Shown: in pieces, positions 27,162-61,924 of the stretch | Layout: each line of letters starts with the position of its first letter | Position numbering within the stretch: position 1 is the first letter of the stretch | DNA from: Flavobacteriaceae bacterium | GTDB lineage: Bacteria; Bacteroidota; Bacteroidia; Flavobacteriales; Flavobacteriaceae | Direction: 5' to 3' | Length of the DNA: 64,000 nucleotides | Assembly (NCBI GenBank): GCA_965224095.1 | Contig: OZ245039.1 | Location: forward strand, 2,559,715 to 2,623,714 | Notes under the pieces: generated by a model | Seen by the model: only the letters and a program-made list of their open reading frames with translations | What the model was told of the DNA's origin: nothing | The model's database searches: none | Position numbers and translations under genes: made by a program

Positions 27162-27315
27162 AATCTCTTAGTTTTTAGTTAGTTTCTTACTCTGTTTCAG
27201 GCTTTTCAGATTCCGCCTCATAAATATGTTCTCAATTATATGAGGGAAAACAGACATTTTGTTACCCAATTTTTTTCAAGTATTTTGGTAAACCTTATTT
27301 AAGGCGTAGGATTTT

Positions 27316-35249: not shown

Positions 35250-35944
35250 AAACTGTGATGCAAACTTAACTGTAGCTGTGCTTTCCCCCAATTATCGGTC
35301 TTTTGATTCATCCAGCCCAGTTGCACCTTGACCTTATCGCTAAAGGTTTTACCAATCCCAAGATAGGTACGGTTACGGTCAAAGAGTTCCACTTCCCGTC
35401 CGTCGCCAATATCGGTCTGTCCATTAATAAACAGTTCGTTGTATAGCGCAATATAAGTAGCTCCCTTGCTCAGATCGGCCTGGTTAAGCGGAATATTTAA
35501 AAAGAGATTATAACGGTAGCGGGTTCTGAAATCCTGATTCTCTACCCAGCGCTGCTCATATCTGAATCTATGGGTAAAGTACAACCGCCCTCCTACCTTA
35601 TGAGGCATGAGTGCTTCCTGATAAATCCGGCTTTCCGTACTGGTATCATCACTGTCTCCCGGAACACCCGTGGTAATATGTCCGTATCCCAGGGTAAGTT
35701 TTATATTGGTGTTTTCAGGGCGATATGTAAACCCCGAACGTAAAAGTAATTGCTCCAGATCGCCTCCCAGGTTCCAGTTTCTGTACTGAATATCTCCCTG
35801 TACACCCCAACGGCTTTCCCCAAAGGAGGTATTGTAAAAATACATATACCAGGCCCCGGTTTTAGATTCTTCCACCTGGGCAGATAGGCCAAGACTAAAT
35901 AAACAACTCAAACATAATAGCAGTAAGTGATTCTTTTTAAGCAT
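35246..35944 (-). CDS. Outer-membrane beta-barrel protein (DUF2490-like)
   Basis: Signal peptide, alternating strands, terminal aromatic residue (LSLHHSF). Confidence 0.75.
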   Translation of the reverse strand: MLKKNHLLLLCLSCLFSLGLSAQVEESKTGAWYMYFYNTSFGESRWGVQGDIQYRNWNLGGDLEQLLLRSGFTYRPENTNIKLTLGYGHITTGVPGDSDDTSTESRIYQEALMPHKVGGRLYFTHRFRYEQRWVENQDFRTRYRYNLFLNIPLNQADLSKGATYIALYNELFINGQTDIGDGREVELFDRNRTYLGIGKTFSDKVKVQLGWMNQKTDNWGKAQLQLSLHHSF

Positions 35945-36084
35945 AGTGTCAATTTAAGGAAGCCCGAAAATAAGAAACAATCGTATTTTTTGCAAAACCA
36001 TTATGGGTAATAAAATCTTAAAATTTGAGTGAAAATCGCTGAAATCCACTAAATTTGATAGGAATCATTCCGAAAAAGACGATC

Positions 36085-36915
36085 ATGGCAACCCGAAAGT
36101 ACGAAGGAAGAAAGTTTGAAGCCGAGGTATCCAGAGATACCCTGGACGCATTGACGGTTGAAGAAGCTCTTCAAATTAATATTAATAATAAAGCCTTTAC
36201 GGTGTCTATGCGCACCCCGGGAGAGGATGTGAATCTGGTACGCGGCATGCTCCATGCCGAAGGCATCCTGAAAGACACTTCTTATAAACCGGATGTAGTG
36301 ATCAAAAAAGAAAACGAAAAAGGGGTAGTCACCATCGTCAATCTCAATATTCCGGAAGATCAATTGGGCGAAGGTTATAGCAACAGCCGAAGCCTCCTCT
36401 CGGTTTCATCATGCGGGATTTGCGGAAAAACAGAATTAGGTGATCTGGCTTTTCTGGGAAAGACCATCGATGATACGGTAAAAATTGATATCAACAGCAT
36501 TCACCATCTCTTTGAAAGCATGCAGGCACGGCAGTACGATTTCCGGCAGTCGGGAGGTACGCATGCCGCCGCTGCCTTTAATCTGAAGGGAGATCTGATC
36601 TGTTCTATGGAAGATATCGGGAGGCATAATGCCGTAGATAAGGTAGTGGGAAAATTGATCCTTGGCGATCAACTTAATGAAGCAAAGATATTAACCGTAA
36701 GCGGACGCATCTCTTATGAAATTGTGATAAAGTGTTTTAAAGCCGGAATCCCGTTTCTTGCTGCTGTATCAGCCCCTTCATCGCTGGCGGTAGATTATGC
36801 CAAGGAACTGGGTATTACCCTCTTTGCCTTTTGCAGAGATAACAGGGCTACCTGCTATGCACATCCCGAGCGAACCAAAATAACAACCAGTCAAAACGAT
36901 ACTAAAGCAAGTTAA
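36085..36915 (+). CDS. fdhD: Formate dehydrogenase accessory sulfurtransferase FdhD
   Basis: SSCGICGK motif and GGTHAAA block. The ORF-track start is a TTG; the ATG is at 36085. Confidence 0.9.
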   Translation: MATRKYEGRKFEAEVSRDTLDALTVEEALQININNKAFTVSMRTPGEDVNLVRGMLHAEGILKDTSYKPDVVIKKENEKGVVTIVNLNIPEDQLGEGYSNSRSLLSVSSCGICGKTELGDLAFLGKTIDDTVKIDINSIHHLFESMQARQYDFRQSGGTHAAAAFNLKGDLICSMEDIGRHNAVDKVVGKLILGDQLNEAKILTVSGRISYEIVIKCFKAGIPFLAAVSAPSSLAVDYAKELGITLFAFCRDNRATCYAHPERTKITTSQNDTKAS

Positions 36916-36920
36916 AATAA

Positions 36921-38582
36921 ATGTCAGATAACTTAAGCGAATTATTAGGAAGAAAAGGCGTAGAAGAAAGCCTCTTTGATAAAATGGGCCAACTGGCACA
37001 GCCACAGGGAACTCTTGATGAAACTACCCTGGCCCAACTGGCCGATGAGTTTCTGGTGGGCACCGCCAATACCTACGGCACTACCACCTTTTACGATTTC
37101 CTAAAACCCGAAAACAAAGGTAAAAAAGTATATGTATGTAACGGTACCGCCTGTCTCTGTGCCGGCACTCAGGAACCGCTGATCGACGATCTTAAATCCC
37201 ATTTTAATGCTGATGAGATCGGACATATGACCTGCCTGGGCCGATGCCATGAAAACAGCGCCTTTCACTATAACGGAAAAAACTATTCCGGATCGGCAAC
37301 CCGGAATCTAAAAGCGATCATAAGTGCTGAAAACAAGCTAAATACAGATCGTTATCATGTAGGCGTTCACGGCCCAGCCATTTTAACGAAGCCTTTTACC
37401 GATATCGATAGCTATTACGCTCCCTTTATCAAGGCCCTGAAAACCGATTCAGCGGAGGTGCTCGAGGAGATTAAGATCTCCAATGTACGCGGACGTGGAG
37501 GAGCGGGTTTCCCTATGGGGCTTAAACTGGAATTTTGCCGTAAGGAAAAAAACGACACCAAATTCATAATCTGTAATGCCGATGAAGGCGATCCCGGAGC
37601 CTATTCCGATCGCTATTTACTCGAAGAACGTCCGCATTCGGTATTATTCGGGATGCTGATCGCCGGTTATGTTACCCATGCCTCCTATGGCATTCTCTAT
37701 ATCCGGGCCGAATATCCCGAAGCAGTGACCATAGTGCAGGAGGCTATTGACGACCTACGGACCAAAGGACTTATTGGAAAAGATATTAATGGCAACGGTT
37801 TTAATTTTGATTTTAAGATCATCCAGGCGCAGGGATCCTATATCTGCGGTGAAGAAACCGCCCTGATCAGCTCTATCGAAGGGCAGCGTCCCGAGGTGCG
37901 GGTACGCCCTCCCTTCCCGGCTCAGAAAGGCCTGTTTAATAAACCCACTACTGTAAATAATGTAGAAACTCTGGCCGCATTACATTATATTATTTCCCAT
38001 GGAGGTGAAGCCTGGAAAAAGATAGGCACAGACCGCTCATCAGGGACCAAACTGGTATGCCTGGATAGCTTTTTTAACAATCCGGGGATGTATGAGGTGG
38101 AAATGGGAACTCCCTTATCTGTTGTGGTCAATGAACTGGGAGGCGGATTTAAATCACCCGTCAAAGCCATGCAGATCGGTGGTCCCTTAGGCGGACTTGT
38201 TCCCGTCTCCAAAATAGAAGAATTAAATGTGGATTTTGAATCCTTTTCAAAAGGAGGATTCCTGTTGGGGCACGCCTCCGTAGTATGTATCCCGGAAGAT
38301 TTTCCCATACTGAAATTTATAGAACACCTGTTTGATTTTGCTGCCTATGAGAGCTGCGGGAAGTGCTTCCCTTGTAGATTAGGTACCAAACGCGGACAGG
38401 AACTGGCCAGCAAGGCCTTGCAGAGCGATTATAAAATAGACAAAAAACTGTTTCACGATTTACTGGATACCCTGGAAAAAGGCTCCCTCTGCGCCCATGG
38501 CGGCGGGATTCCCCTCCCGGTACGGAATGCGATGCAGTATTTTGAGGATGAATTGAAAGGATATTTTGTTTCTAATTCCTAA
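36921..38582 (+). CDS. NAD-dependent formate dehydrogenase diaphorase subunit (fused NuoE-like 2Fe-2S + NuoF-like FMN/4Fe-4S)
   Basis: CNGTACLC...CLGRCH thioredoxin-like 2Fe-2S. GRGGAGFPMGLK. ESCGKCFPCRLG. Confidence 0.9.
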   Translation: MSDNLSELLGRKGVEESLFDKMGQLAQPQGTLDETTLAQLADEFLVGTANTYGTTTFYDFLKPENKGKKVYVCNGTACLCAGTQEPLIDDLKSHFNADEIGHMTCLGRCHENSAFHYNGKNYSGSATRNLKAIISAENKLNTDRYHVGVHGPAILTKPFTDIDSYYAPFIKALKTDSAEVLEEIKISNVRGRGGAGFPMGLKLEFCRKEKNDTKFIICNADEGDPGAYSDRYLLEERPHSVLFGMLIAGYVTHASYGILYIRAEYPEAVTIVQEAIDDLRTKGLIGKDINGNGFNFDFKIIQAQGSYICGEETALISSIEGQRPEVRVRPPFPAQKGLFNKPTTVNNVETLAALHYIISHGGEAWKKIGTDRSSGTKLVCLDSFFNNPGMYEVEMGTPLSVVVNELGGGFKSPVKAMQIGGPLGGLVPVSKIEELNVDFESFSKGGFLLGHASVVCIPEDFPILKFIEHLFDFAAYESCGKCFPCRLGTKRGQELASKALQSDYKIDKKLFHDLLDTLEKGSLCAHGGGIPLPVRNAMQYFEDELKGYFVSNS

Positions 38583-38958
38583 TCTCTAATTCCTGATTGG
38601 GTTGTTGGAATCATAGGGCAATAATTAGAAATGAGAAATTCGTAATTCGAAATTAAATAATAGGTGTTTCTGATTCCTAATCTCTAATTCCTAATTGGGT
38701 AGTTGGAGACAAAGGAGAATAATTAGAAATGAGAAATTCGTAATTCGAAATTAAATAATAGGTGTTTCTGATTCCTAATCTCTAATTCCTAATTGGGTAG
38801 TTGGAGACAAAGGAGAATAATTAGAAATGAGAAATTCGTAATTCGAAATTAAATAATAGGTGTTTCTGATTCCTAATCTCTAATTCCTAATTGAGTGGTT
38901 GGAAACAAAGGATAATAATTAGAAATGAGAAATGAGAAATTCGTAATTAAAAATTAAC
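38567..38958 (+). repeat. Four tandem ~98-bp palindromic (hairpin) repeat units
   Basis: Right-arm starts (aattagaaatgagaaatt) at 38623, 38721, 38819 and 38917. Units 38663-38760 and 38761-38858 are identical. The first unit overlaps the last four codons and the stop of the upstream gene. Confidence 0.9.
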
Positions 38959-38959
38959 T

Positions 38960-39370
38960 ATGGGAACCATAAAAAGTTTTGAGGACTTGAAAATATGGAA
39001 AGAAGCCAGAAAACTTTCTCGGGCTGTTTATGACCTGACCTACAAAGAACGTTTCTCTAAAGATTATACTTTAAAAGATCAGATTCGAAGGTCTGCAGGT
39101 TCGGTAATGGATAATGTTGCTGAAGGATTTGATAGAGATGGAACCAAAGAGTTTATACATTTTTTGACAATTGCCAAAGGATCATTGTCGGAAACCCAAT
39201 CACAACTCTATCGAGCACTAGATTTAGATTATATTGATAAAAAAGAATTCGAGGATAATCATGAATTGGCAAAAGATATTGGAAAACAGATTGGAGGTTT
39301 TATTAAATACCTTCGACAATCAACATATAAAGGAAATAAGTTTAAAGAACCTGATATAGATTATTTATGA
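38960..39370 (+). CDS. Four-helix-bundle protein (23S rRNA intervening-sequence protein / S23p family)
   Basis: Family hallmarks FEDLKIWKEARKL, QIRRSAGSVMDNVAEGF and FLTIAKGSLSETQSQL. Confidence 0.9.
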   Translation: MGTIKSFEDLKIWKEARKLSRAVYDLTYKERFSKDYTLKDQIRRSAGSVMDNVAEGFDRDGTKEFIHFLTIAKGSLSETQSQLYRALDLDYIDKKEFEDNHELAKDIGKQIGGFIKYLRQSTYKGNKFKEPDIDYL

Positions 39371-40134
39371 TTCCTAATTCCTAATCTCTAATTCCTAATT
39401 GAGTAGTTGGAAACAAAGGAGAATAATTAGAAATGAGAAATTCGAAATAAGAAATTAAATAAAGGTGTTTCTAATTCCTGATCTCTAATTCCTAATTGAG
39501 TGGTTGGAATCATAGGACAATAATTAGAAATGAGAAATTAGAAATTCGAAATTAATAAAGGTGTTTCTGATTCCTAATCTCTAATTCCTAATTGGGTAGT
39601 TGGAGACAAAGGAGAATAATTAGAAATGAGAAATGAGAAATTCGAAATTAAATAAAGGCGTTTCTGATTCCTGATTCCTGATTTCTAATTGAGTAGTTGG
39701 AGGCTAAGAGGAATAATTAGAAATGAGAAATGAGAAATTCGAAATTAATAAAGGTGTTTCTAATTCCTGATCTCTAATTCCTGATTAGGTGGCTGGAAAC
39801 AAAGAAGAATAATTAGAAATGAGAAATTCGAAATAAGAAATTAAATAAAGGTGTTTCTGATTCCTAATCTCTAATTCCTAATTGGTTTTTAGAAACATAG
39901 AAGAATAATTAGAAATGAGAAATTCGAAATAAGAAATTAAATAAAGGTGTTTCCGATTCCTAATCTCTAATTCCTAATTGAGTAGTTGGAAACAAAGGAG
40001 AATAATTAGAAATTCGTAATTCGAAATTAAATAAAGGTGTTTCTAATTCCTGATCTCTAATTCCTAATTGGTTTTTAGAAACATAGAAGAATAATGAGAA
40101 ATTAGAAATGAGAAATTCGTAATTCGAAATTAAT
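39371..40134 (+). repeat. Eight tandem ~96-97-bp palindromic repeat units
   Basis: Right-arm starts at 39425, 39522, 39618, 39715, 39811, 39907, 40004 and about 40093. The array ends 3 nt before the alpha-subunit ATG. Confidence 0.9.
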
Positions 40135-40137
40135 AAA

Positions 40138-42921
40138 ATGAAAGACCCAATCCAAAATACAGAACATCAGGCCCCAAACACAAAAACAAAACAGGCCTTT
40201 ATCAACGGGGAATCCTTTCCTATTGAGCCGGGCGAAACCATGCTGTCTTTTATCCGGCGATATAAAGAAAAAAGCCTGGTGCCTACCCTTTGTGATGCGC
40301 CGAATCTGGATCCCTTTGGGTCATGTAGAGTGTGCAGCGTTGAGGTAGCCCTCGAAGAAAACGGACCTGTAAAGACGGTGGCCTCCTGCCATACCCCCGT
40401 GGCCGAAGGGCAGCACATCTATACCAGTACTCAAGGTATTAAAGAATTGCGAAAAAACATTCTGGAGCTGGTACTTACCGATCACCCGCTGGACTGCCTA
40501 ACCTGTGAGGTCAATGGCAATTGCGAATTACAAACCGTAGCCGCCCAGGTAGGTATTCGCGAAGTGCGTTACCCGGAGGGCGATACCCATCTAAACAGAG
40601 AAAAAGACCTGAGTCACCCCTATATGACTTCCGACCTCTCCAAATGTATTAACTGCTATCGCTGTGTACGTGCCTGCGATGAATTACAGGGGCAGTTTGT
40701 ACTCAGTATGTCCGGAAGAGGCTTTGATTCCCATATTATAAAAGGGCTGGACCAGAGTTTTATGGAATCCGATTGTGTGAGTTGCGGAGCCTGCTCCCAG
40801 GCATGCCCTACCTCGGCGATTTCCGATGTCTTCCAGTCCAAAGCCATTTTTGCTACCGATACCACCCGAACCATCTGTACCTATTGCGGGGTGGGCTGTA
40901 ACCTGGAAGTAGCTACCGATAACGGTGAGATATTAAGTATCACCGCCCCCTATGATGCAGAGGTAAACCAGGGACATACCTGTTTAAAAGGGCGCTATGC
41001 CTTTAAGTTCTATAACCATCCCGAGCGACTCGATTCACCTATGATCAAACGCAACGGTGAATTCGAAAAAGTAAGCTGGGAGGAAGTATATGACTATATC
41101 GCCGATAAATTCAATCACTATAAATCGGAATTCGGACCTGATTTTCTGGCTGGTATTTCCTCTTCCCGATGTACCAATGAAGAGAACTACCTTATGCAGA
41201 AATTTTTCAGAGCCGTGATCCAGACCAATAATATAGATGGCTGTGCACGCGTATGCCATTCACCTACCGCATTGGGGATGCAACGTACCTATGGAACCGG
41301 TGCCGCCACCAACTCTATTGACGACCTCAATCATACCAACTGTATTATGGTAATCGGTGCCAATCCCACCGATGCCCATCCCGTAACCGGAGCCAAACTC
41401 AAGCAGTTTGCCATGAAATCGGATAACGTATCCATTGTAATCGATCCGCGACGTACCGAGCTGGCCAGATATGCCACCTATCACCTGCCACTCAGGCCCG
41501 GCACCAATGTAGCTGTTCTCAATATGATGATGTATTATATTGTGACAGAAGGCCTGGTAGATGAAACCTTTATAAAGAACCGAACCGAAGGCTATGAAGA
41601 CTTTAAAAAAGAACTGCTGGCCATCGATCTGGACAAGCTGGAATCCGTTTCCGGACTCGACCGTGCCCTGGTTCGCGAAGCTGCTATGGCCTATGCCACC
41701 GCACCCAATGCCATGTCGTTTCACGGGCTGGGGGTTACCGAACACTCCCAGGGAACCTTTACCGTGATGCAGATAGCCGATCTGGCACTGATGACCGGGA
41801 ATATAGGACGTAAAGGAGTAGGCGTAAACCCTCTCCGCGGACAAAACAATGTGCAGGGCTCTGCCGATATGGGTGTACAACCCCATCAGGGAGCCGGATA
41901 CCTCGATGTAACCAATGAAGAAGTCAATAAAAAATACAATGAATTCTACGGGGTGACCGTTCCAAAACACATAGGATATAAGATCCCAGAAATGTTTGAC
42001 GCTGCCCTCGACGGAAAACTCAAAGCCATCTGGATCATTGGGGAAGATGTGGTACAAACCGATCCTAATACCCAAAAGGTGATCAAAGCCCTGGAGAGTA
42101 CCGATCTGGTAATCGTTCAGGAACTCTTTATGACCGAAACCGCCAAGCATGCCGATGTTATTTTACCCGGAGCCTCCTTCCTGGAAAAGAGCGGTACCTT
42201 TACCAATGGAGAGCGACGCGTACAGGCCGTTCGCCAGGTAGTGCAACCCCATCCCGGAACCAAACCCGACGGACAGATCATCATAGATATGATGAATAAA
42301 ATGGGTTACGAGCAAGCCGATTATACTCCCGATGGTATGCTGGAGGAGATCTCACAAATCGTGCCCTTCTTTGCAGGAATTAAATGGGACCGACTGGGAG
42401 AAAACGGACTTCAATGGCCGGTACAAGCCGACGGTACCGATACCCAGATTCTCCATACCGAAACCTTTAAACGCGGTAAGGGATATTTTGAATTTAATCC
42501 ATGGGAAGAAACCGCAGAGCTTACCGAGCATGCCAAAGACTATCCCTATATTCTAACTACCAATCGCGAGCTGGAACACTATAACTGCGGGGCTATGACC
42601 CGTCGTACCGCCAATGAAGAGATCCTTCAATCCGATTATTTAATGATTCATCCCGATGATGCTGTAAGTCATTTAATCAGCGAAGGCGACTGGGTATGTC
42701 TGGAATCCCCCAGAGGTAAGGTAGATGTTAAAGCCCGTATTACCGATGAGGTAAAACCCGGAATATTGAGTACCACCTTCCACTTTCCGGAGATCATGAT
42801 CAATAATATCACCGGTGATGTACACGACTCCGAAGCCATGTGTCCTGAATATAAGGTAGTGGCCGTACGGATACGAAAGAGTAAGGGGAAGTTTAAAAAG
42901 GGGAAGGTTGGGGTAGTATAG
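40138..42921 (+). CDS. fdhF: Formate dehydrogenase alpha subunit (molybdopterin, NAD-type; Cys not Sec at the active site)
   Basis: N-terminal 2Fe-2S (CRVCSVEV). HPLDCLTCEVNGNCELQ. Two ferredoxin 4Fe-4S motifs. CTYCGVGCN. CARVCHSPT active-site block. Confidence 0.95.
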   Translation: MKDPIQNTEHQAPNTKTKQAFINGESFPIEPGETMLSFIRRYKEKSLVPTLCDAPNLDPFGSCRVCSVEVALEENGPVKTVASCHTPVAEGQHIYTSTQGIKELRKNILELVLTDHPLDCLTCEVNGNCELQTVAAQVGIREVRYPEGDTHLNREKDLSHPYMTSDLSKCINCYRCVRACDELQGQFVLSMSGRGFDSHIIKGLDQSFMESDCVSCGACSQACPTSAISDVFQSKAIFATDTTRTICTYCGVGCNLEVATDNGEILSITAPYDAEVNQGHTCLKGRYAFKFYNHPERLDSPMIKRNGEFEKVSWEEVYDYIADKFNHYKSEFGPDFLAGISSSRCTNEENYLMQKFFRAVIQTNNIDGCARVCHSPTALGMQRTYGTGAATNSIDDLNHTNCIMVIGANPTDAHPVTGAKLKQFAMKSDNVSIVIDPRRTELARYATYHLPLRPGTNVAVLNMMMYYIVTEGLVDETFIKNRTEGYEDFKKELLAIDLDKLESVSGLDRALVREAAMAYATAPNAMSFHGLGVTEHSQGTFTVMQIADLALMTGNIGRKGVGVNPLRGQNNVQGSADMGVQPHQGAGYLDVTNEEVNKKYNEFYGVTVPKHIGYKIPEMFDAALDGKLKAIWIIGEDVVQTDPNTQKVIKALESTDLVIVQELFMTETAKHADVILPGASFLEKSGTFTNGERRVQAVRQVVQPHPGTKPDGQIIIDMMNKMGYEQADYTPDGMLEEISQIVPFFAGIKWDRLGENGLQWPVQADGTDTQILHTETFKRGKGYFEFNPWEETAELTEHAKDYPYILTTNRELEHYNCGAMTRRTANEEILQSDYLMIHPDDAVSHLISEGDWVCLESPRGKVDVKARITDEVKPGILSTTFHFPEIMINNITGDVHDSEAMCPEYKVVAVRIRKSKGKFKKGKVGVV

Positions 42922-42937
42922 CGTTTTTATAGATTGC

Positions 42938-43039
42938 GAATTTCTGATTTCTAATTCCTAATTAGGTTCTTGGAAGCATAAGGGTATGATCAAAAATCAA
43001 AAATTAGAAACTAGGAATTAGGAATTAGGAATCAGAAAT
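42938..43039 (+). repeat. Solitary copy of the heptad-arm hairpin element after the fdh operon
   Basis: Left arm gaatttctgatttctaattcctaatt (42938-42963) is nearly perfectly complementary to aattaggaattaggaatcagaaat (43016-43039). Confidence 0.8.
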
Positions 43040-43110
43040 AAAAAACCGCTTATAGTTTAACCGTTTAGCTGTTAATCGTTTATTTTAGATGTTGTTTGAG
43101 TAATAATACA

Positions 43111-43248
43111 ATTATCCGATTTAACGCATCCACGTATCAACGTATCAACCCTTCGTCAACCAATTAGAAATCAGACCTCAGAATTAATGATCCAAGCCCC
43201 AAAATAATCAATCATCAATAGTCAATCATCAATAGCCAATAATCAATT
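43111..43248 (+). repeat. Dispersed 'tatccgatt-aacg-atc...caac..aattagaaat' module plus a 14-nt tandem repeat at the left edge of the R-M island
   Basis: The module at 43111-43180 recurs at 53217, 53333 and 57018. (caatcatcaatagN) occurs about 2.8 times at 43205-43248. Confidence 0.7.
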
Positions 43249-43395
43249 AAAAATTAATCCTTACATTTATTGTTCCTCCCAGCCTTTTGGTTTTATCAGA
43301 ATTTATATGCATTCTTTTTTTACTTGTTCTATGTAGTGTTCTTCAACTTAATTACATTAGTAGTCTTAAAGAAAATAAGAATAAGGGATAGTTAA

Positions 43396-45852
43396 ATGGC
43401 AATAAAAAAATCTGAATTATATAGCTCATTATGGGCAAGTTGTGACGAATTAAGAGGCGGAATGGACGCAAGTCAGTACAAAGATTATGTATTGGTAATG
43501 CTCTTTATAAAATATATAAGTGACAAATGGGCTGGTCAGCCCTATGCACCAATCACCATTCCAAATGGGGCAAGTTTTAAAGATATGGTTGCACTTAAAG
43601 GCGCAACCGATATTGGTGACCAAATCAACAAAAAAATAATTGCACCTGTTGCAGAAGCAAATCAGTTAGCTGATATGCCGGATTTCAATGATGTGACCAA
43701 ATTAGGTAGCGGAAAAGAAATGGTAGATAGGTTAACCAACTTGATTGCCATTTTTGAAAACCCTAATCTTGATTTTAGTAAAAACAAAGCAGAAGGGGAT
43801 GATATATTAGGGGATGCTTATGAATATTTAATGCGTCACTTTGCTACGGAAAGCGGAAAAAGCAAAGGACAGTTCTATACCCCTGCCGAAGTTAGCCGAA
43901 TAATGGCTAAAATTATTGGTATAGACAAAGAAGAAACTACCGCAGAAACTACAGTATATGACCCTGCCTGTGGTTCGGGTTCCTTACTTCTAAAAATTAG
44001 TAGCGTAGCTAAAGGTAAGGTTACTTTGTATGGTCAGGAAAAAGATTCAGCAACTTCTGGTCTCGCTCGAATGAATATGATATTACACAACGAACCAACG
44101 GCACTCATCAAACAAGGTAATACATTATCAAACCCTTTGTTTAAAAACAAAAACAACGACAATCTAAAAACCTTTGACTATGTAGTAGCTAATCCACCGT
44201 TTAGTGATAAACGTTGGAGTAACGGATTAAACCTGCCTGAAGATTATCCCTATAATCGTTTTCAGGACTATGGCATCCCACCCGCAAAGAATGGGGACTA
44301 TGCCTTTTTATTACACATCGTACGTTCCTTAAAACGTCACGGAAAGGGGGCAGTTATTTTACCTCACGGTGTTTTGTTTAGAGGAAATGCAGAAGCAGAA
44401 ATACGTCAGAATTTAATTCGTAAAGGTTATATAAAAGGCATTATTGGTTTACCTGCCAATTTGTTTTATGGTACAGGTATTCCAGCGTGTATTATTTTAA
44501 TAGATAAGGAAAATGCCCAAAACCGAAAAGGTATTTTTATGATAGATGCCGGTAAAGGTTTTGTAAAAGACGGTAACAAAAACAGATTAAGAGAGCAGGA
44601 TATTCACAAGATTGCCGATGTGTTTAATAACCAAGAGTCCATACCGGGATTTAGCAGAATGGTCTACCTGGCAGATATTGAAGCTAATGAATACAATCTA
44701 AATATTCCAAGATATATAGAGAGCCAGGAAACCGAAGACATACAAGATATTGAAGCGCATTTATTAGGTGATATTCCTAATGCAGATATAAAGGCATTAC
44801 AACACTTTTGGGATGTATATCCTAACGTAAAAGGTGCATTGTTTACCCAAAGTAAAAGACCAAATTACAGTAGTTTAAAAGTGTCTAAAGATGAGATTAA
44901 GACCACCATTTTTGAGCATCCAGAGTTTGTAGCGTTTAGTACCCAAATGGATAATTTATTCAACGAATGGAAAATAGAAACAACAACGACTTTAAAAGGC
45001 TTAACAGAAGGTTTTAACCCAAAAGAATTAATACACAGCCTATCTGAAAATTTATTGAATCAATATACCAATAAGGCATTGATAGACTCTTATGATATGT
45101 ACCAGCATTTAATGAGTTATTGGTTTGAAGTAATGCAAGATGATAGTTACATCATTACCCAAGATGGTTGGAAAGCTGAAACCTATAGAATTATAGTAGA
45201 AAACAAGCAAAAGAAAAAAGTAGATAAAGGTTGGACGTGCGATCTTGTACCTAAAGACTTGGTGATTAACCGTTATTTTAAAACAGAAAAAGAAGCGTTA
45301 GAAAGTTTACAAGCTGAAAAAGAAACTATTGCAAGTGAGCTAACCGAATTAGAGGAAGAACACAGTAGTGAAGATGGTTATTTTGGGGAGATGGAAAAAG
45401 TAAACAAAGCCACTATAAATGCTCGTATTAAAGAATTAAAAGCTAAACAAAAAACTGCAGTCACCTCGAGCGCAGTCGAGAGGTCTCATAATGATGATGA
45501 CTCTAATGAAATGGAAGTGTTAAAACAATATATCGCTCTACTTACCAAACAAACAGCTACCAACAAAAAGATTAAAGAAGCAGAAAAAGAGTTAGACACA
45601 AAACTCTATGCAAAATATCCAACATTAACCCAAGATGAAGTAAAACAATTAGTAGTAGATGATAAATGGATGCAAACCATAGAAACTACTATAAAAGACG
45701 AAATAGACCACATAAGTCAACGTTTAACCAACCGTGTAAAAGAATTAGCAGAACGTTACGAAAACCCATTACCTGTTATTGATAATGAAGTTGAAAGTTT
45801 GGAAATTAAAGTGAACGCTCACTTGCAAAAAATGGGTTTTGTATGGAATTAA
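43396..45852 (+). CDS. hsdM: Type I restriction-modification methyltransferase subunit M (long form with C-terminal coiled-coil)
   Basis: Motif I VYDPACGSGSLL, motif IV VVANPPFS, and a conserved N-terminal LWASCDELRG. Confidence 0.95.
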   Translation: MAIKKSELYSSLWASCDELRGGMDASQYKDYVLVMLFIKYISDKWAGQPYAPITIPNGASFKDMVALKGATDIGDQINKKIIAPVAEANQLADMPDFNDVTKLGSGKEMVDRLTNLIAIFENPNLDFSKNKAEGDDILGDAYEYLMRHFATESGKSKGQFYTPAEVSRIMAKIIGIDKEETTAETTVYDPACGSGSLLLKISSVAKGKVTLYGQEKDSATSGLARMNMILHNEPTALIKQGNTLSNPLFKNKNNDNLKTFDYVVANPPFSDKRWSNGLNLPEDYPYNRFQDYGIPPAKNGDYAFLLHIVRSLKRHGKGAVILPHGVLFRGNAEAEIRQNLIRKGYIKGIIGLPANLFYGTGIPACIILIDKENAQNRKGIFMIDAGKGFVKDGNKNRLREQDIHKIADVFNNQESIPGFSRMVYLADIEANEYNLNIPRYIESQETEDIQDIEAHLLGDIPNADIKALQHFWDVYPNVKGALFTQSKRPNYSSLKVSKDEIKTTIFEHPEFVAFSTQMDNLFNEWKIETTTTLKGLTEGFNPKELIHSLSENLLNQYTNKALIDSYDMYQHLMSYWFEVMQDDSYIITQDGWKAETYRIIVENKQKKKVDKGWTCDLVPKDLVINRYFKTEKEALESLQAEKETIASELTELEEEHSSEDGYFGEMEKVNKATINARIKELKAKQKTAVTSSAVERSHNDDDSNEMEVLKQYIALLTKQTATNKKIKEAEKELDTKLYAKYPTLTQDEVKQLVVDDKWMQTIETTIKDEIDHISQRLTNRVKELAERYENPLPVIDNEVESLEIKVNAHLQKMGFVWN

Positions 45853-47030
45853 AACAAGGTTATAAACAAACGGAAGTTGGTTTGATTCCAGAGGATTGGG
45901 AAGTTGCAACTTTAAATGATGCTGTTGTTTTTTTAGATAATTTAAGAAGACCTATAAAATCATCTGAAAGATTACAAATGAAAGGTAATTATCCTTATTA
46001 TGGAGCTTCTGGTATCATAGATTATGTTAATTCATATCTCTTTGATGATGAATTAATTTTACTCGGTGAAGATGGTGAAAACATATTGAGTAGAAATTTG
46101 CCACTTGCGTTTATTGCAAAAGGGAAAATATGGGTTAATAACCACGCACACGTGCTGAAACCAAAAGAAGATTTCAATATTGTTTATTTAACTGAATATT
46201 TAGAGAGTTTAGATTATAGTTTGCTTAATTCAGGAACGGCTCAACCAAAGATTAACCAACAGGTTTGTCAAAAAATCCAAGTTCTAAAACCACCACTTCC
46301 AGAACAAAAAGCCATAGCCCAAGTATTAAGCGATACCGACAATTTAATACAAGCCATAGAACAAAAACTCTCAAAAAAAAGAGCCATTAAACAAGGTGCT
46401 ATACAAGAACTCTTAACACCTAAAGAAGATTGGGAGGAGAAGAAGCTGGGCGAGGTTTCCGAAGTTTTTGGAAGAATAGGATTTAGAGGATATACTAAAA
46501 AAGATATTGTTCCTAAAGGCAAAGGAGCAATAGCATTAAGCCCATCAAATATCAATGATAACGAATTAAATTTTATAAAAAGTACTTATATATCTTGGTT
46601 TAAATATGATGAATCCCCAGAAATTAAAATAAATGTTGGAGACATAGTTTTAGTAAAAACAGCTTCAATTGGTAAAACAGCTTTGGTAAAGTATTTACCT
46701 GAAAAAGCAACATTAAATCCACAGTTAGTTGTATTCAAAAACATAAAAGTTGATAATGTTTTTCTTTCATATATAATGAAGGATAAAGTTTTTCAAAATC
46801 AAATAAAAACAAGTGTTGTAGGTGGAGTTTTGGCAACATTATCACAGGAATACATTAAGAGCTTTTTAATTCCGTTACCAAAAACAAAAGAAGAACAAAC
46901 TCAAATCGCCATCATCCTTTCCGATATGGATGCAGAAATCGAGCAATTAGAACAAAAGCTATCTAAATATAAATTGGTAAAACAGGGTTTAATGCAAAAC
47001 TTGTTAACGGGTAAAATTAGGTTGGTATGA
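45843..47030 (+). CDS. hsdS: Type I R-M specificity subunit S
   Basis: Two target-recognition halves, each followed by the conserved helix (LPEQKAIAQVLSDTDNLIQAIEQKL / EEQTQIAIILSDMDAEIEQLEQKL). 10-nt overlap with hsdM. Confidence 0.95.
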   Translation: MELKQGYKQTEVGLIPEDWEVATLNDAVVFLDNLRRPIKSSERLQMKGNYPYYGASGIIDYVNSYLFDDELILLGEDGENILSRNLPLAFIAKGKIWVNNHAHVLKPKEDFNIVYLTEYLESLDYSLLNSGTAQPKINQQVCQKIQVLKPPLPEQKAIAQVLSDTDNLIQAIEQKLSKKRAIKQGAIQELLTPKEDWEEKKLGEVSEVFGRIGFRGYTKKDIVPKGKGAIALSPSNINDNELNFIKSTYISWFKYDESPEIKINVGDIVLVKTASIGKTALVKYLPEKATLNPQLVVFKNIKVDNVFLSYIMKDKVFQNQIKTSVVGGVLATLSQEYIKSFLIPLPKTKEEQTQIAIILSDMDAEIEQLEQKLSKYKLVKQGLMQNLLTGKIRLV

Positions 47031-47500
47031 AAGAAAATATACTCTTTTACATTGGTCTTTTAAAAGATTTAGCACCACTAATAATTTCATTAGTTGCTAT
47101 TTGGCTTACAAGTCGCTATCAAAAGCACACAAAAAAGTTAGCTAATGATAAAATGATGAAAGAGCTCTTTACGGAGTTTAATCAACGCTATGATGCGATT
47201 AACAATAAATTAGATGAAGTATCCAAACTAACTTTAGAGCAATGGAATAAGTTAAGTTCTAAAGAGCAATTAGTTAAAGAAGGCGTTGTTATAGACTTTT
47301 TTAATATCTGTGCAGAAGAATACCATTGGCATAAAGAAGGTAGAATAAATGGTAATATATGGGCAAGTTGGCATAAAGGTATGAATGATATTTATAACAG
47401 AAGTAAGGTGATTCAAAACATTTGGAATGAAGAATGTAAAAATGAGGGTCATAAATCCTACTACCTTTCAAATAAGAATGACATTTTTAAAAAGGTGTAA
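47027..47500 (+). CDS. Uncharacterised 157-aa single-pass membrane protein nested in the R-M operon
   Basis: ATGA overlap with hsdS. TM helix LAPLIISLVAIWLTS followed by a basic stretch, then a Trp/His-rich helical domain. I recognise no catalytic motif. Confidence 0.75.
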   Translation: MKENILFYIGLLKDLAPLIISLVAIWLTSRYQKHTKKLANDKMMKELFTEFNQRYDAINNKLDEVSKLTLEQWNKLSSKEQLVKEGVVIDFFNICAEEYHWHKEGRINGNIWASWHKGMNDIYNRSKVIQNIWNEECKNEGHKSYYLSNKNDIFKKV

Positions 47501-47506
47501 ATTTTT

Positions 47507-49324
47507 ATGGATATAAAAGCAGACGTTAAAAACATATCAGAATTAAAAGACTATTCCTTTATCGTTCCAGATTATCAACGTGAATATGTTTGGAAACCAG
47601 ACGACCAGGTGGAACAATTTCTTATTGACATTGATAATGAGTTTAATCCAAATGTCAAAGAACAGAAGAGCTATTTTATTGGCTCAATTATTATAGTAGA
47701 TAATAATGGAAAGCATGATGTTATTGATGGGCAGCAACGACTTACTACAATTGTATTAGCCCTTTGTGCGTTTCGTGATTTGCTGAAACCTTTAAAAAAA
47801 GGATCAGAAGATATTGGAGAGGAATATCTAAAGTCTATTGAAGGATTACTATATTCATTTGATTTAAAAACAAAAAAGTCAACATATCGTTTGGAACTTC
47901 AATATGAAGAAAGTAAAGGTTATTTAAACAGGCTTATAAATGGCAATGAATTTACAGAAGACAAAAGTCCATCTGTAATAAAAATGGAACTTGCCTACAA
48001 CAGAATGAAATCACATTTTGACCTATATTTAAAAGAAGGATTATCCCAATTAGTAGATTATGTAGGTTATTTTTTAACGTGTATTGAAATAGTGGTTATT
48101 AAACCAGAAAATTTAAGTAGTGCTCTAAAGATTTTTGAAACTATTAATCAAAGAGGTACAAATTTAAATGCAATGGATTTGGTTAAAAACTTACTCTTTA
48201 TAGAAGCTGATGAAGATGAATTTGATTACATCAAAAAAACGTGGAAGAAAATAACAAATAACCTACAGTCTTGTGGTGAAGAAAATAGTCCGCTTCGTTT
48301 TTTACGTTATTTTTTAATGGCTCGTTATCATAATGGTATTATTAGAGAAGATGATATTTACTCGTGGATAATTTCTGCTGAAGGTAAAAAGGCAACAGAC
48401 TATCAAAACAACCCATCTTCTTTTGCTAAAGAGTTAATGAAAATTTCAAAACGCTATGCAGATTTAGTAAATGCAACACAGCATAAGGATAGCAATGGTA
48501 CTTATCCAGAAGTAAATAATATAGGCTATATAAACAAAGTTAAATCTCGTCAACATTTAGTATTGCTTTTGGCATTAGATATTAATGTGTCAAACGAAGA
48601 AATTAACTATTTGGCGAAACAAATAGAAAGCTTTTTCTTTTTTAGTAACACACTAGGTATTCAGGCAAAATACAACGAAAATCTCTTTATTAAATGGGCT
48701 AATGAATTAAGAAAAGAAAAAGGCATTGAACGTATTAAACAGGTTACAGAAGATTTTATAATTCCATATATAAAAGAAAGAATGTCTAAAATACGGTCAG
48801 AGTTTCTTAATATCTTTCATTCTCATTATAATCCTCTTTATAGATTGCGATTCATTTTTGCCAAAATTGAAAACACAATTTTAAAGCAAGCCGGTTTACC
48901 TGAACAAGATTTAAAGTTTTTAGATAAAATGCAGATTGAACACATCTTACCGCAAACACCTAAAGATGGCGTTCTTCCAGATGAATTTGAAGATGTGGAT
49001 GATTATAACAAGTATGTTTACAGTATAGGAAATGTGGTTTTGCTAGAAGCGCAAATAAATCAAGCAGTTAATAATTTTAATGAATTAAAAGGAAATTGGT
49101 TTAATATGAAGCAAGAAGAATATATTAATTCAACAGTAACTTCTGTAAAACTATTAAATGATAAATTTAGAGTAGGTAATAACACAGCGTTAAATAGATT
49201 TAGAACAGATAAAGGATATGTGTTTACAAATTGGAATAAGGAAGCAATAGAAAAACGTCAAAAAATTCTATTAGAGTTGGTTTACGAAACTTGGAAATTC
49301 AACAACAAAAGAATAGACAATTAA
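47507..49324 (+). CDS. DUF262/DUF1524 (GmrSD-like) putative modification-dependent nuclease
   Basis: DUF262 signatures VPDYQREYVW and DGQQRLTT. C-terminal His-Me-like block IEHILPQ ... GNVVLLEAQINQAVNN. Confidence 0.85.
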   Translation: MDIKADVKNISELKDYSFIVPDYQREYVWKPDDQVEQFLIDIDNEFNPNVKEQKSYFIGSIIIVDNNGKHDVIDGQQRLTTIVLALCAFRDLLKPLKKGSEDIGEEYLKSIEGLLYSFDLKTKKSTYRLELQYEESKGYLNRLINGNEFTEDKSPSVIKMELAYNRMKSHFDLYLKEGLSQLVDYVGYFLTCIEIVVIKPENLSSALKIFETINQRGTNLNAMDLVKNLLFIEADEDEFDYIKKTWKKITNNLQSCGEENSPLRFLRYFLMARYHNGIIREDDIYSWIISAEGKKATDYQNNPSSFAKELMKISKRYADLVNATQHKDSNGTYPEVNNIGYINKVKSRQHLVLLLALDINVSNEEINYLAKQIESFFFFSNTLGIQAKYNENLFIKWANELRKEKGIERIKQVTEDFIIPYIKERMSKIRSEFLNIFHSHYNPLYRLRFIFAKIENTILKQAGLPEQDLKFLDKMQIEHILPQTPKDGVLPDEFEDVDDYNKYVYSIGNVVLLEAQINQAVNNFNELKGNWFNMKQEEYINSTVTSVKLLNDKFRVGNNTALNRFRTDKGYVFTNWNKEAIEKRQKILLELVYETWKFNNKRIDN

Positions 49325-49330
49325 AAAATT

Positions 49331-52300
49331 ATGAGTAAAGTAGGCAGTATAGAACGTATTACTCAAAATAGAGTGGTAAAATTATTCCAGTCAGCATTGG
49401 GTTACACCTATTTAGGCAATTGGGAGGATAGAGAAGGCAATAGCAATATTGAAGAGGAATATTTAACCACCTATCTACGTAAAAAAGGTTATAATACTGC
49501 TCAAATCACTAAAGCCATTTATGAGCTAAAAACTACAGCTAATAATTTTAGTGATAGCCTATATACCACTAATAAAAATGTGTATGAGTTACTTCGCTAT
49601 GGTGCAGATATTAAAACAGAAGTAGGTAAAAACACCGAGAAAGTACATTTTATAGATTGGAAAAATTGGGATAAAAATGATTTTGCTATTGCAGAAGAAG
49701 TAACCATAAAAGGTAACAAAACAAAGCGACCAGATATAGTTATTTATGTAAATGGTATTGCTTTAGGAGTTTTAGAATTAAAAAGAAGTACCATAACTAT
49801 AAATGATGGTATTCGTCAAAATATTACCAATCAACAAGACCGTTTTATTCAACCGTTCTTTGCTACGGTTCAATACCTTTTTGCTGGAAATGATACAGAA
49901 GGCTTACGTTATGGAACCATTAAAACACCTGAAAAATACTATCTGAAGTGGAAAGAAGATATTGCAGATAACAGTAGAAATCTGTTGGACAAATATCTTT
50001 TAAAGATGTGTGATAAACAACGTTTTTTGGAAATCATCTACAACTTCATTGTTTTTGATGGAGGCGTTAAAAAATTACCAAGAGTACATCAATATTTTGG
50101 TGTAAAAGAAGCGCAAAAGCATATCAACAGATACGAAGGGGGTATTATATGGCATACCCAGGGGAGTGGTAAAAGTATCACTATGGTGTATTTGGCAAAA
50201 TGGATTTTAGAAAATAATCCAAACTCCAGAGTTGCTATTTTAACAGACCGCGATGAGTTAGATAAACAAATAGAGCGAGTTTTTAAAGATGCTGATGAAA
50301 AAATCTACCGTACAAAAAGCGGTAAAGATTTAATGCAAAAATTAAGTAATCCTACACCAAGATTATTATGTTCTTTAGTACATAAGTTTGGTAAAAGGGA
50401 CGCAGGTAATTTCAAACAATTTATAAAAGAATTAGAAAGTCAACCATCACAAGTAGTTGGCGAATTATTTGTTTTTGTAGATGAATGTCACCGTACACAA
50501 AGTGGTCGTTTGCATCGTACGATGAAAGCAATGTTACCTAATGCTGTTTTTGTTGGATTTACAGGTACGCCGCTATTAAAGAAAGACAAACAAACAAGTT
50601 TAGAGGTATTTGGTAAATACATACATACGTATAAATTTAATGAAGGTGTTGAAGATGGTGTTATATTAGATTTAGTATATGAAGCCAGGGATATAGACCA
50701 GCACTTAACCTCTCAAAAAAGAATAGACGAATGGTTTGAAGCTAAAACAAGAGGGTTAAACGACTTTCAAAAATCTGAAATCAAGAAGAAATGGGGAACA
50801 ACGCAAAAAGTATTGAGCAGTCGTTCTCGTATGGAAAGAGTGGTTACCGATATTGTATTCGATTTTAGTACCAAACAACGTTTATCCTCTCAAAATGGAA
50901 ATGCAATTTTAGTAGCGAGTTCTATTTATGAAGCGTGCAGATATTATGAGTTGTTTCAAAAAACACCTTTAAAAAATACCTGTGCTATTGTTACCTCATA
51001 CACACCACATACAAGTGATATAACTACAGAAGATACTGGTGCAAGTACAGATACAGAAAAAGAGTTTATATATAATTTATATACAGAAATTTTAGGCTCA
51101 AAAACAACAGAACAATACGAAGATTGGGCAAAAGCAAAATTTACTGATGAGCCCGCAAATATGCAACTCTTAATTGTAGTCTCTAAATTACTAACGGGTT
51201 TTGACGCACCGAGTTGTACGTATTTATATATCGATAAGAGTATGCAGGATCACGGTTTGTTCCAGGCAATATGTAGAGTTAATAGATTAGATACAGCAGA
51301 TAAACAATTTGGTTATATAGTTGATTATAAAGACTTGTTTAAAAAAGTAGAAAATGCGGTTGCCGTATATACTTCAGATTTAGATTATGATGATTTTGAA
51401 GCGAACGATATAGATATAATGCTTCATAGCCGTTTAAAGGTTGGTAAGGAAGGATTAGATAATGCTTTAGAAGAAATACATATTTTATGTGAACCTGTTG
51501 CACCACCTAAAGATACGTTAGCTTATATACATTATTTCTGCGGAAATACTGAGATAGAAGAAGAATTAAAAGCAAAAGAGGCGCAACGCACAGCATTGTA
51601 TAAAAAAACAGTTTCTCTCATTCGGGCCTATGCCAATATTGCGGATGAAATGGAAGAAGCAGGCTATACGGAAAGTGAAATAATTAACATAAAGAAAGAG
51701 CTAGACCATTATTTAAAGTTACGAGAGGAAATTAAAAAGGCAAGTGGTGAAACATTGGATTTAAAAACCTATGAAGCGGATATGCGTCACTTAATTGATA
51801 CGTATATTCAGGCGGATGAGCCTGAAACAATTTCCCCTTTTTCAGATATGTCTTTATTAGATATAATTGTTAAATCTGGTATTGCAGATGCTATAAATTC
51901 TTTACCTTATGGTATAAAGTCTAATCAAGGAGCAATAGCAGAAACAATTGAAAATAATGTCAGAAAGAAAATAATTAAAGAGCATTTAATCGACCCTGCT
52001 TTTTTTGAAAAGATGTCTAAATTACTATCTGAAATAATTAAAGAACGTAAGGCAAATGCTATAAGTTATGCAGAGTATTTAGAGAAGATTGCCGAACTTG
52101 CTAAAAAGGTAAATGAAGGCAAGAGTGAAGAAACACCGGACACCCTGGTAACCATAGCTCAAAGAGCACTTTATAATAATTTAGGAAATAATGAAGTATT
52201 AGCTATACTAATTGATAAGGCGGTAAAAAACGTAAAAAGAGATGGCTGGAGAGGAAATTTGCCAAAAGAACGAGAAATTAAAGCGGAAATTTATAAACAA

Positions 52301-53216: not shown

Positions 53217-53450
53217 ATTACCCGACTTAACGCTTCCCCAACCAATTAGAAATCAGAAATTCGTAATTAGAAACATTTAAAAGTTTAATCTCGTAATCGT
53301 CTATTCGTTTGTATAAGATCAGATTAAAGCAAAACCGATTCAACGAATCCACAAATCAACACTTCAACCATCAATTAGAAATGAGAAATCAGAAATCAGA
53401 AATCAGGAATCAGAAATCAGAAATCAGGAATCAGAAATTCACCCCCATAA
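53217..53450 (+). repeat. Two dispersed repeat modules with AGAAATC heptad tracts at the right edge of the island
   Basis: 53217-53275 and 53333-53450. The latter carries about 9 tandem heptads (cagaaat/caggaat). Confidence 0.8.
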
Positions 53451-57017: not shown

Positions 57018-57090
57018 TTATCCGATTCAACGAATCAACGGTTCACTCAACAATCAGAAATTAGGAATTAGAAATCAGAAACTGGAAATT
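57018..57090 (+). repeat. Fourth copy of the tatccgattcaacgaatc module plus a heptad arm
   Basis: aattatccgattcaacgaatcaacggttcactcaacaatcagaaattaggaattagaaatcagaaactggaaatt. Confidence 0.75.
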
Positions 57091-57251
57091 ATACTTCCCT
57101 TAACAGTATGAATCCTGATTTTTAGTAACTTTAAAGAATTCAGTATATCTTGATTTTTTTTTGGTTCGTTTTTTATCAGGAAAAAAATGAAGGGGAACAT
57201 TGTTTTTGTCTTGTACATTCAATAATCATATATAACTAACTAAACAATATC

Positions 57252-59883: not shown

Positions 59884-59905
59884 CCGATAATTTCTTTATT
59901 TCTAA
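59865..59905 (+). terminator. 14-bp perfect hairpin whose 4-nt loop contains the large-subunit stop codon
   Basis: aaagaaattatcgg-ttag-ccgataatttcttt followed by atttctaatt. The TAG stop is at 59881-59883. Confidence 0.6.
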
Positions 59906-61913: not shown

Positions 61914-61924
61914 TGTGATTATAT

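Follow-up and report, generated by a model that had tools for sequence, protein, structure and literature searches.

A heptamer hairpin array and a four-helix-bundle gene inside a formate dehydrogenase operon of a Flavobacteriaceae bacterium

In a 64,000-nt stretch of contig OZ245039.1 from a Flavobacteriaceae bacterium (hereafter the window; all coordinates are window positions), the operon for an NAD-linked formate dehydrogenase contains a gap of 1555 nt between the stop codon of a fused NuoE/NuoF-like subunit gene (38582) and the ATG of the alpha subunit gene fdhA (40138). Twelve hairpin units of 90-100 nt each lie in this gap, four upstream and eight downstream of a small gene for a four-helix-bundle protein of family PF05635. 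What kind of insert is this, how may it have arisen between two subunit genes, and is the company of gene and hairpins more than a coincidence? Comparison with orthologous operons and with other loci of the same protein family suggests that the locus is, on balance, probably a cassette resembling the intervening sequences (IVSs) of 23S rRNA, lodged in an mRNA operon, the hairpin module of which has been locally amplified. The anatomy of the locus, its status as an insert, selection acting on the protein, the coupling between gene and arms, and the local amplification are regarded as shown. The coupling of PF05635 genes with heptamer arms inside operons in general is a more interesting result than the array itself.

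The array and its gene

The upstream array (38567..38959, + strand) comprises U1 (38567-38664), U2 (38665-38762), U3 (38763-38860), and U4 (38861-38959), and the downstream array (39366..40137, + strand) comprises U5 (39366-39465), U6 (39466-39561), U7 (39562-39658), U8 (39659-39754), U9 (39755-39851), U10 (39852-39947), U11 (39948-40037), and U12 (40038-40137), as delimited by Tandem Repeats Finder, repeat search, and unit alignment. Tandem Repeats Finder gave a period of 98 for the former (38567-38951, 3.9 copies, 94% matches) and of 96 for the latter (39377-40124, 7.8 copies), which scores slightly higher as a 193-nt higher-order repeat. Start-to-start spacing in the repeat search is 98, 98, and 98 nt upstream and 97, 96, 97, 96, 97, 96, and 90 nt downstream, where the last steps can alternatively be read as 97 or 96, 96 or 90, and 90 or 103. 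An earlier note on this stretch had claimed twelve units in a 4 + 8 arrangement, and this is borne out by the sequence, Tandem Repeats Finder, and the repeat search; its gap length and its single open reading frame (ORF) in the gap stand as well. Its upstream period of 98 also holds, and its downstream period of 96-97 holds except for the last two units, which measure 90 and 100 nt.

The segments 38663-38760 and 38761-38858 are identical, as had been noticed before, and U2 equals U3 in the unit alignment; U6 and U7 match U1 and U2 at 91-96% identity. By type of loop, the units run a b b c before the gene and d a b e f g d g behind it. Because of the identical pair, the 193-nt period, and the units common to both sides, satellite-like unequal exchange, including exchange across the gene, is suggested, and the units likely multiplied as the internally repetitive arms recombined unequally or slipped against one another.

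When the two arms of each unit are aligned without gaps, 20-24 of 30 positions form Watson-Crick pairs, with a further 0-2 G-U and 2-5 C-A, in agreement with the previous estimate of about 23 of 30. The left arms are tandem heptamers of the forms TTTCTGA, TTCCTAA, and TCTCTAA, and the right arms are built from AATTAGA, AATGAGA, and AATTCGA. Unit lengths differ in 7-nt steps (90, 96-98, and 100 nt), with a heptamer extra or missing in one unit. In 0.9 Mb comprising the window and related loci, 16 tracts are periodic at lag 7 vs 0-2 at lags 5, 6, and 8-11. The arms abut the coding sequences closely. The last codons of the NuoE/F-like gene (36921..38582, + strand; a diaphorase subunit with PF01257, PF01512, and PF10589) and its stop TAA (38580-38582) fall within the left arm of U1, so that the C-terminus ...YFVSNS* leads into TTTCTAATTCCTAA, and the TGA stop of the four-helix-bundle gene lies at the start of the U5 left arm. 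The right arm of U4 stops 7 nt short of the ATG of the four-helix-bundle gene, and that of U12 stops 6 nt short of the ATG of fdhA.

Other identities of the array were considered. A translated or peptide-coding array was rejected, as the gap contains no second ORF of at least 50 aa besides 38960-39370, i.e. the four-helix-bundle gene. A CRISPR array was rejected since the whole 90-100-nt unit repeats at 69-100% identity, loops included, with no unique spacers. Rfam scans, at gathering thresholds for the window and with permissive settings for 38.4-43.3 kb, returned nothing relevant, only two sub-threshold matches to microRNA models, and no rRNA in the window. The unit-core pattern gave one chance match only (Pseudomonas) across 185,579 species genomes. 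The unit loop has only GGTGTTTCTAATTCC, of too low complexity to use, in common with the ends of the gene or with the hairpins of the related loci L001 and L047 described below.

PF05635 proteins form a large family, and many genomes of Cyanobacteria and Bacteroidota encode dozens of paralogues. The member in the window (38960..39370, + strand, 136 aa) matches PF05635 with E = 2.9e-35 (121.1 bits, cut-off 33.8) and TIGR02436 with E = 5e-34 (116.8 bits, cut-off 24), and its nearest solved relatives are PDB 2GSC (XCC0516, pentameric, five chains; E = 7e-12) and 2RLD (E = 1e-4). These matches confirm the earlier assignment to the four-helix bundles of the 23S rRNA IVS and Avd kind. The motif GxxRxxxSxxxNxxE (PMC3936711) is present and reads DQIRRSAGSVMDNVAEG in the window protein. 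Q41, S48, and N52 show no variation among 15 diverse members of PF05635, and E55 and G56 hardly any.

The junction in related operons and the design beyond them

A scan of metagenomes with the NuoE/F-like protein yielded 80 orthologous loci at 74-84% identity, about 70 of them with a readable junction (here and below, related loci and contigs are given as L001 and so on). An empty site is the norm: at about 60 of the 70 junctions the two genes are 2-13 nt apart or overlap. Eight lineages, the window included, have an orthologous four-helix-bundle gene exactly at the NuoE/F|fdhA junction; orthologues with 66-74% identity occur in the Flavobacteriaceae-like contigs L001, L004, L006, and L009, and the NuoE/F scan adds gene copies only in L047, L056/57, and L072. 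On a neighbour-joining tree of NuoEF plus FdhA, the gene-bearing operons fall in at least five separate places, with L047, for instance, beside the gene-less L017 and L016. The fdh-site proteins themselves form one clade and are under purifying selection, with dN/dS of 0.07-0.12. Pairwise identities of the four-helix-bundle proteins track those of the Fdh proteins loosely (Spearman 0.22), and the window protein is nearest to that of the most distant operon, L004.

The empty sites and the differing unit counts, for both of which the earlier note had suggested looking, were thus found, with 4 + 8 units in the window alone. From these comparisons, the history of the site is that of a single ancient insertion, with many precise losses, recombinational exchange of gene-bearing and gene-less alleles, or both in its wake; the insertion has been kept in a minority of Flavobacteriaceae lineages and lost or never gained in most. 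The suggestion of a selfish insertion, if taken as a recent event at this site, does not agree with the single clade and the dN/dS values.

Heptamer arms accompany the gene in 8/8 gene-bearing lineages, normally as one hairpin or one arm on each side, vs only one lineage (L052) of the approximately 60 junctions without the gene. The minimal form is seen in L004, which reads stop, (TTTCTGA)n, ATG...stop, (TCAGAAA)n, ATG, and in which the ORF lies within an inverted repeat. L056 and L009 have a second left arm added downstream of the gene, and L001 and L047 have one complete hairpin on either side of it. By this comparison, the window has the L001/L047 form with the hairpin multiplied to four and eight, and its 12-unit array is best understood as an amplification, specific to this lineage, of the cassette's hairpin module.

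Several junctions show other features. L052 has an (AAGAAAY)n heptamer hairpin (2145-2300), L087 a strong CACGGAG-type hairpin (3628-3817; z = -4.7 sense, -7.9 antisense), and L071 a GGTATCGG hairpin (3245-3335), all without the four-helix-bundle gene; unrelated hairpins are found at the NuoEF|FdhA junction of the L073 group. In L084 (4443-5680) and L086 (7650-8860), a histidine-kinase gene of about 410 aa occupies the junction, and since it is found in two lineages, the NuoEF|FdhA spacer accepts other inserts too. Many of the 'empty' spacers of 9-11 nt (L035, L037, L064, L048, L062, and L054) read ATTAGAAAACA, AAAAGAAAT, or TTTAGAAAGAG, and the one heptamer-like AGAAA unit in them could be a slippage seed, a footprint, or just an A-rich leader.

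The same design recurs outside the fdh operon. Homologues with 53-60% identity lie, co-directional, between sufB and sufC (three lineages), moaE and moaC, a NanM-like gene and a major facilitator superfamily transporter gene, pfk and pyk, and two rhamnose-pathway dehydrogenase genes. Members on plasmid records follow an iscA-like gene in Riemerella, separate cas6 from cas4 in Pseudanabaena, and separate parA from parB in Geminocystis. At all these loci, lineage-specific, heptamer-periodic, and mutually complementary arms flank the gene, e.g. GTTTCAG/CTGAAAC, ATTTGAG/CTCAAAT, TTTAAGG/CCTTAAA, GGGAAAA/TTTTCCC, and AGCTTTT/AAAGCTA, or CTATCGG/CCGAACG in high-GC hosts, and seven further loci on viral contigs show the same gene-plus-arms pattern.

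Pairing between the 70 nt before the ATG and the stop region has a mean z of -2.55 at 13 independent loci (e.g. L004, L099, and L102), and 139 control ORFs from these contigs average -0.11 (Mann-Whitney p = 5e-7). Among lags 4-11, lag 7 ranks first in one flank or more at 25/25 loci and in both flanks at 19/25; the figure for controls is 25/90. Overall, the gene-plus-arms design in unrelated operons of several phyla suggests a cassette family related to the rRNA IVSs. The IVS-like cassette proposed in the earlier note therefore gains support in two respects, since the insert behaves as one (empty sites, scattered positions on the tree) and since in relatives the ORF is bracketed by arms.

An association specific to iron-sulfur or molybdenum cofactor pathways, as the fdh, suf, and moa operons might have indicated, was rejected in view of the pfk-pyk, nan, rhamnose, cas, and parAB contexts. 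The moa-site gene of L009 (11281-11628, - strand) is a second PF05635 gene of 115 aa in that contig, and its arms (ATTGCCT/ATTGTAA... and TCAATAA/TCAATAG) differ from those of the fdh site. In the type I-D cas operon of Pseudanabaena (L106), heptamer arrays of up to 18 copies (AAAAGCT, AAAAGCC, and TTAGCTT) occupy several junctions (2264-2498, 2866-2963, 3546-3722, and 4810-4937), not solely those beside the four-helix-bundle gene.

Expression, folding, and competing explanations

The whole stretch would be read through within an fdhD-nuoEF-fhb-fdhA transcript. Bacteroidota promoters are defined by the motifs TTTG and TAnnTTTG. On the + strand of 35900-43400, TAnnTTTG occurs only at 36050 and 37802, the latter inside the NuoE/F-like gene, and none lies inside the array. 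The copy at 36050 has TTTG about 22 nt upstream and forms, with it, a candidate Bacteroidota-type operon promoter (36020..36057, + strand; TTTG ... TAAATTTG), although a motif match is weak evidence. It stands before fdhD, the gene of the formate dehydrogenase accessory sulfurtransferase (36055..36915, + strand; PF02634 E = 1e-62; TIGR00129 167 bits, cut-off 141). Intrinsic terminators and internal promoters in the array were sought and rejected, none being present on the + strand; a sigma-70 scan does not apply to Bacteroidota. Read-through transcription across the array is inferred from the Bacteroidota-type -7 motif before fdhD, the lack of such a motif within the array, and the absence of terminators on the + strand.

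The arms may also serve translation. Since the stops of both the NuoE/F-like and the four-helix-bundle genes lie in left arms, the pyrimidine-rich left arm (TCTGATT/TCCTAAT) may supply stop codons exactly where the preceding cistron ends. The A-rich right arm next to the ATG may act as the leader free of a Shine-Dalgarno sequence that ribosomes of Bacteroidota use, and it is therefore proposed that the insert does not silence fdhA (40138..42921, + strand; TIGR01591 798 bits, cut-off 666). The start of the four-helix-bundle gene has a predicted unpaired probability of 0.55 and that of fdhA one of 0.65 (rank 6/52), compared with 0.49 +/- 0.13 for all genes, and both start regions are thus predicted to be at least as open as that of an average window gene. 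Both ATGs have A at position -3. According to PMC6847099, translation initiation in Flavobacterium is tuned by secondary structure and upstream nucleotides, and A at -3 is a positive determinant. Left and right arms may pair locally or around the ORF to give stems of 28-35 bp. By analogy with the rRNA IVSs, these stems might be cut by RNase III, or else be bound by protein, which is the least-supported step of the scheme.

Several observations weigh against this reading. Folding of single units on the sense (mRNA) strand goes only weakly beyond shuffled sequence (z = +1.0 to -3.5), and the antisense strand does somewhat better (-1.0 to -4.5), so that the comparison with shuffles proposed earlier gives a mixed result. 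For whole arrays, z is -4.1 sense and -2.8 antisense upstream and -1.5 sense and -6.9 antisense downstream, and for the orthologous hairpins of L001 and L047 it is +0.1 to -1.2 sense and -2.0 to -4.1 antisense. The better folding of the antisense strand stems from the arm mismatches, most of which are C-A in the mRNA but G-U in the antisense strand. Moreover, the window ORF is not enclosed as an IVS ORF is; the order is hairpin, ORF, hairpin, and its immediate flanks (right arm and left arm) pair no better than shuffles (z = -0.2). The hairpin-flanked context described in the earlier note is therefore real as far as flanking goes, while a position inside one stem is not found in the window. 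Repeated precise loss is hard to explain, and the trees are crude neighbour-joining trees built on metagenome contigs. In favour of a local amplification, no comparable non-coding array was found in 1 Mb of related loci, but short-read assemblies may under-report arrays; contigs that end just past NuoEF (L069 and L071) do not have their breakpoints in repeats. Finally, heptamer arms occur without the gene, at L052 and at junctions of the window, and arms could be common to intergenic regions in general, so that whatever gene is inserted there acquires them.

An explanation that would give the arms a purpose is that they are recognition sites of an Avd-like pentamer, which would read three to five heptamers as RNA or DNA for autoregulation, transcript protection, or maintenance and spread of the element, the twelve units then being an array of binding sites. 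This is conceivable but unlikely. It is in keeping with the presence in the family of the nucleic-acid-binding DGR (diversity-generating retroelement) protein Avd (PMC10053308) and with arms that are typically 28-35 nt long, i.e. four or five heptamers, next to solved relatives that are pentamers (2GSC, five chains). Each paralogue also comes with its own heptamer, AATCAGA at the fdh site of L009 and an ATTGATT type at its moa site. Orthologues in four lineages are basic (pI 8.9-9.3), whereas the window protein, at pI 7.8, is close to neutrality and two of its orthologues are neutral or acidic. The explanation is entirely inferential, and heptamer arms are also present with no such gene nearby.

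The arms without a gene deserve a description of their own. A thirteenth related hairpin lies just past the fdhA stop (42938..43050, + strand; dG -34.3 kcal/mol; z = -6.5 sense, -5.4 antisense); its heptamer arms are nearly perfect, its loop is homologous to those of the array, and all 13 units in the 64-kb window lie at the fdh locus. Tracts of the AATCAGA/AATTAGA family also occupy + strand intergenic positions 42938-42958, 43001-43041, 53245-53275, 53372-53440, 57047-57091, 59889-59925, 60247-60299, 61923-61957, 62164-62226, and 62958-63038. None of this had been mentioned in the earlier note. The tracts are inverted (TCTGATT) right after stops and forward before ATGs; a forward tract likewise ends 6-7 nt before the ATG at 60296, and further tracts precede 53544 and 63066, again between genes. 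No heptamer tract of this family occurs in the first 38 kb of the window. A 22-nt motif, TTATCCGATTYAACGMATCMAC, occurs just upstream of three heptamer tracts (43112-43133, 53331-53352, and 57018-57039; three matches vs none expected in the window), and GTTCATTTTCTTTRCTYGT, perhaps a promoter or small element, occurs at 59996-60014 and 62130-62148 in two arm-enclosed intergenic regions of about 330 and 200 nt.

It may then be asked whether the heptamer hairpins are a genome-wide intercistronic element, either of the REP/BIME type (repetitive extragenic palindrome/bacterial interspersed mosaic element) or of the pre-start heptamer type, whose co-location with the gene is coincidental. Arms of the same family do stand at gene-less junctions of the window (42938/43001, 59889/60247, 61923/62164, 53372, 57047, and 62958), the gene-less regions between arms hold no remnant of the gene (a search for remnants was negative, best E = 0.65), L052 has its heptamer hairpin with no gene, and repeats abutting start codons are known from Bacteroidetes, Cyanobacteria, and Beggiatoaceae (PMC4679880). 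Coincidence is nevertheless rather unlikely in view of the 8/8 gene-bearing lineages with arms against L052 alone, and of PF05635 genes from four very different host groups which all have lineage-specific heptamer arms that control ORFs lack.

A contingency locus, in which heptamer slippage or exchange of 97-nt units would switch the expression of fdhA or of the four-helix-bundle gene, appears improbable. The recent duplication (U2 = U3), the 7-nt steps in unit length, the unit with a heptamer extra or missing, and the proneness of heptamer tracts to slippage (PMC4679880, citing Mrazek 2007) would suit it, but the repeats are non-coding and no promoter motif lies in or beside them, so that their length has no obvious on/off effect. 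Lastly, an accessory or regulatory subunit of the NAD-linked formate dehydrogenase, similar to FdsD and with repeats that tune its expression, is highly improbable and, as an FDH-specific subunit, was rejected on the distribution of the gene, since the conserved position and orientation in eight lineages, the purifying selection, and the nearest relatives in suf and moa operons, which also concern iron-sulfur or molybdenum cofactors, stand against the lack of the gene in about 60 of about 70 orthologous operons with NuoEF at the same level of similarity (74-84% identity) and against close homologues in pfk-pyk, sialic-acid, rhamnose, cas, and parAB operons.

The neighbours of the four-helix-bundle gene are fdhD, the NuoE/F-like gene, fdhA, and a methylase-like gene of the type I restriction-modification kind, the last being the first gene of a co-directional block (43396-53133) directly downstream of the operon. 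Elsewhere in the window, a DUF805b RNA motif (27184-27219, - strand; 42.8 bits) is the sole Rfam match above the gathering score, and a 267-nt tandem repeat (1098-1733; 2.4 copies, 85% matches) inside a long ORF is probably a repeated protein domain.

Known systems and the wider family

The reading as an IVS-like cassette rests on a comparison with the 23S rRNA IVSs of Leptospira and Coxiella (S23p). These likewise contain a PF05635 ORF, are bracketed by terminal arms of about 28 bp (seen here in relatives of the window locus), occur sporadically at a fixed site among close relatives (here eight lineages vs about 60), and are passive in the host transcript. In an ORF-bearing rRNA IVS, the 28-bp terminal stem is cut by RNase III (PMC4990558). 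The differences are that here the host is an mRNA operon, with the gene between two protein-coding genes instead of in a 23S helix, that the arms are tandem heptamers abutting stop and start codons, that the window ORF lies between tandem hairpins instead of in one stem, and that the protein is under selection, whereas S23p of Coxiella is reported to be probably not made.

The heptamers resemble the TAACTGA repeats described by MacGregor in 2015 (PMC4679880). In Beggiatoaceae, Cyanobacteria, and five Bacteroidetes, heptamer repeats end just before start codons; long arrays are absent from close relatives, and a role in translation was proposed, with no mention of the four-helix-bundle family. 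Those repeats, too, are intergenic tandem runs of 7-nt units, forward in orientation, that stop a few nt short of the ATG, with an inverted set sometimes just past the stop and with shorter, repeat-free spacers in relatives. In contrast, the heptamers found here are of the form AATNNGA (AATTAGA, AATGAGA, AATTCGA, and AATCAGA), and inverted pairs of them form a 97-nt hairpin module that is itself in tandem.

The REP/BIME elements of enterobacteria are about 35 nt long and GC-rich, are dispersed in hundreds of copies, and are mobilised by RAYT (REP-associated tyrosine) transposases. Although they too are imperfect palindromes, sometimes in tandem, between co-transcribed genes, with a proposed effect on the stability of mRNA segments, the units described here are 97 nt long, AT-rich, and built of heptamers, all 13 lie at one locus within 64 kb, and no RAYT is known to go with them. 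Avd, a small basic pentameric four-helix bundle, binds nucleic acid as well as the reverse transcriptase with which it is partnered (PMC10053308). The window protein belongs to the same fold family, but it scores 21.8 bits with the Avd equivalog model NF033474 (cut-off 80), and no reverse transcriptase or template/variable repeat lies beside the gene, as judged from the neighbouring genes only.

Zhang and Ye in 2013 reported 18 PF05635 genes that lie between cas genes and took their position as a sign of functional association with CRISPR-Cas (PMC3936711). As here, the gene is small and co-directional within an operon, and a cas6|x|cas4 arrangement was also found in Pseudanabaena in this study; the flanking repeats were not noted there. 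The fdh, suf, moa, nan, pfk-pyk, rhamnose, and parAB contexts are too diverse, and therefore no pathway-specific role is indicated. A full-text literature search, in which subscription journals were thinly covered, did not turn up a paper connecting PF05635 genes to heptamer repeats. When the earlier note stated that no description of such an arrangement was known, this was too broad for the two components, as heptamers before start codons (PMC4679880) and PF05635 genes between cas genes (PMC3936711) had been described, and it remains correct for the link between them.

It is tentatively proposed, as an idea which we hold to be possible but still doubtful, that PF05635 genes with inverted heptamer arms constitute one widespread and so far unrecognised class of cassette in operon spacers and rRNA. 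The rRNA IVS would be a special case of this class, each protein would recognise its own arms, and the cassettes, together with hairpin footprints that lack the gene, would be a major source of the intergenic heptamer repeats of the STRR (short tandemly repeated repetitive)/TAACTGA type in Bacteroidota, Cyanobacteria, and other phyla.

To our knowledge, the intergenic heptamer repeats of Cyanobacteria and Bacteroidota have gone unexplained for decades, and we know of no function for PF05635 outside DGRs. In the window, 1.5 kb of repeat and a foreign ORF are tolerated between two subunit genes that are normally translationally coupled, and the locus is therefore a natural test case for re-initiation without a Shine-Dalgarno sequence in Bacteroidota. 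If gene and arms are one unit, annotators would gain a rule for recognising inserts that are today read as pathway-specific, e.g. cas-associated, and the puzzles of PF05635 and of the heptamers would both become approachable by experiment, with one protein and one 30-nt arm.

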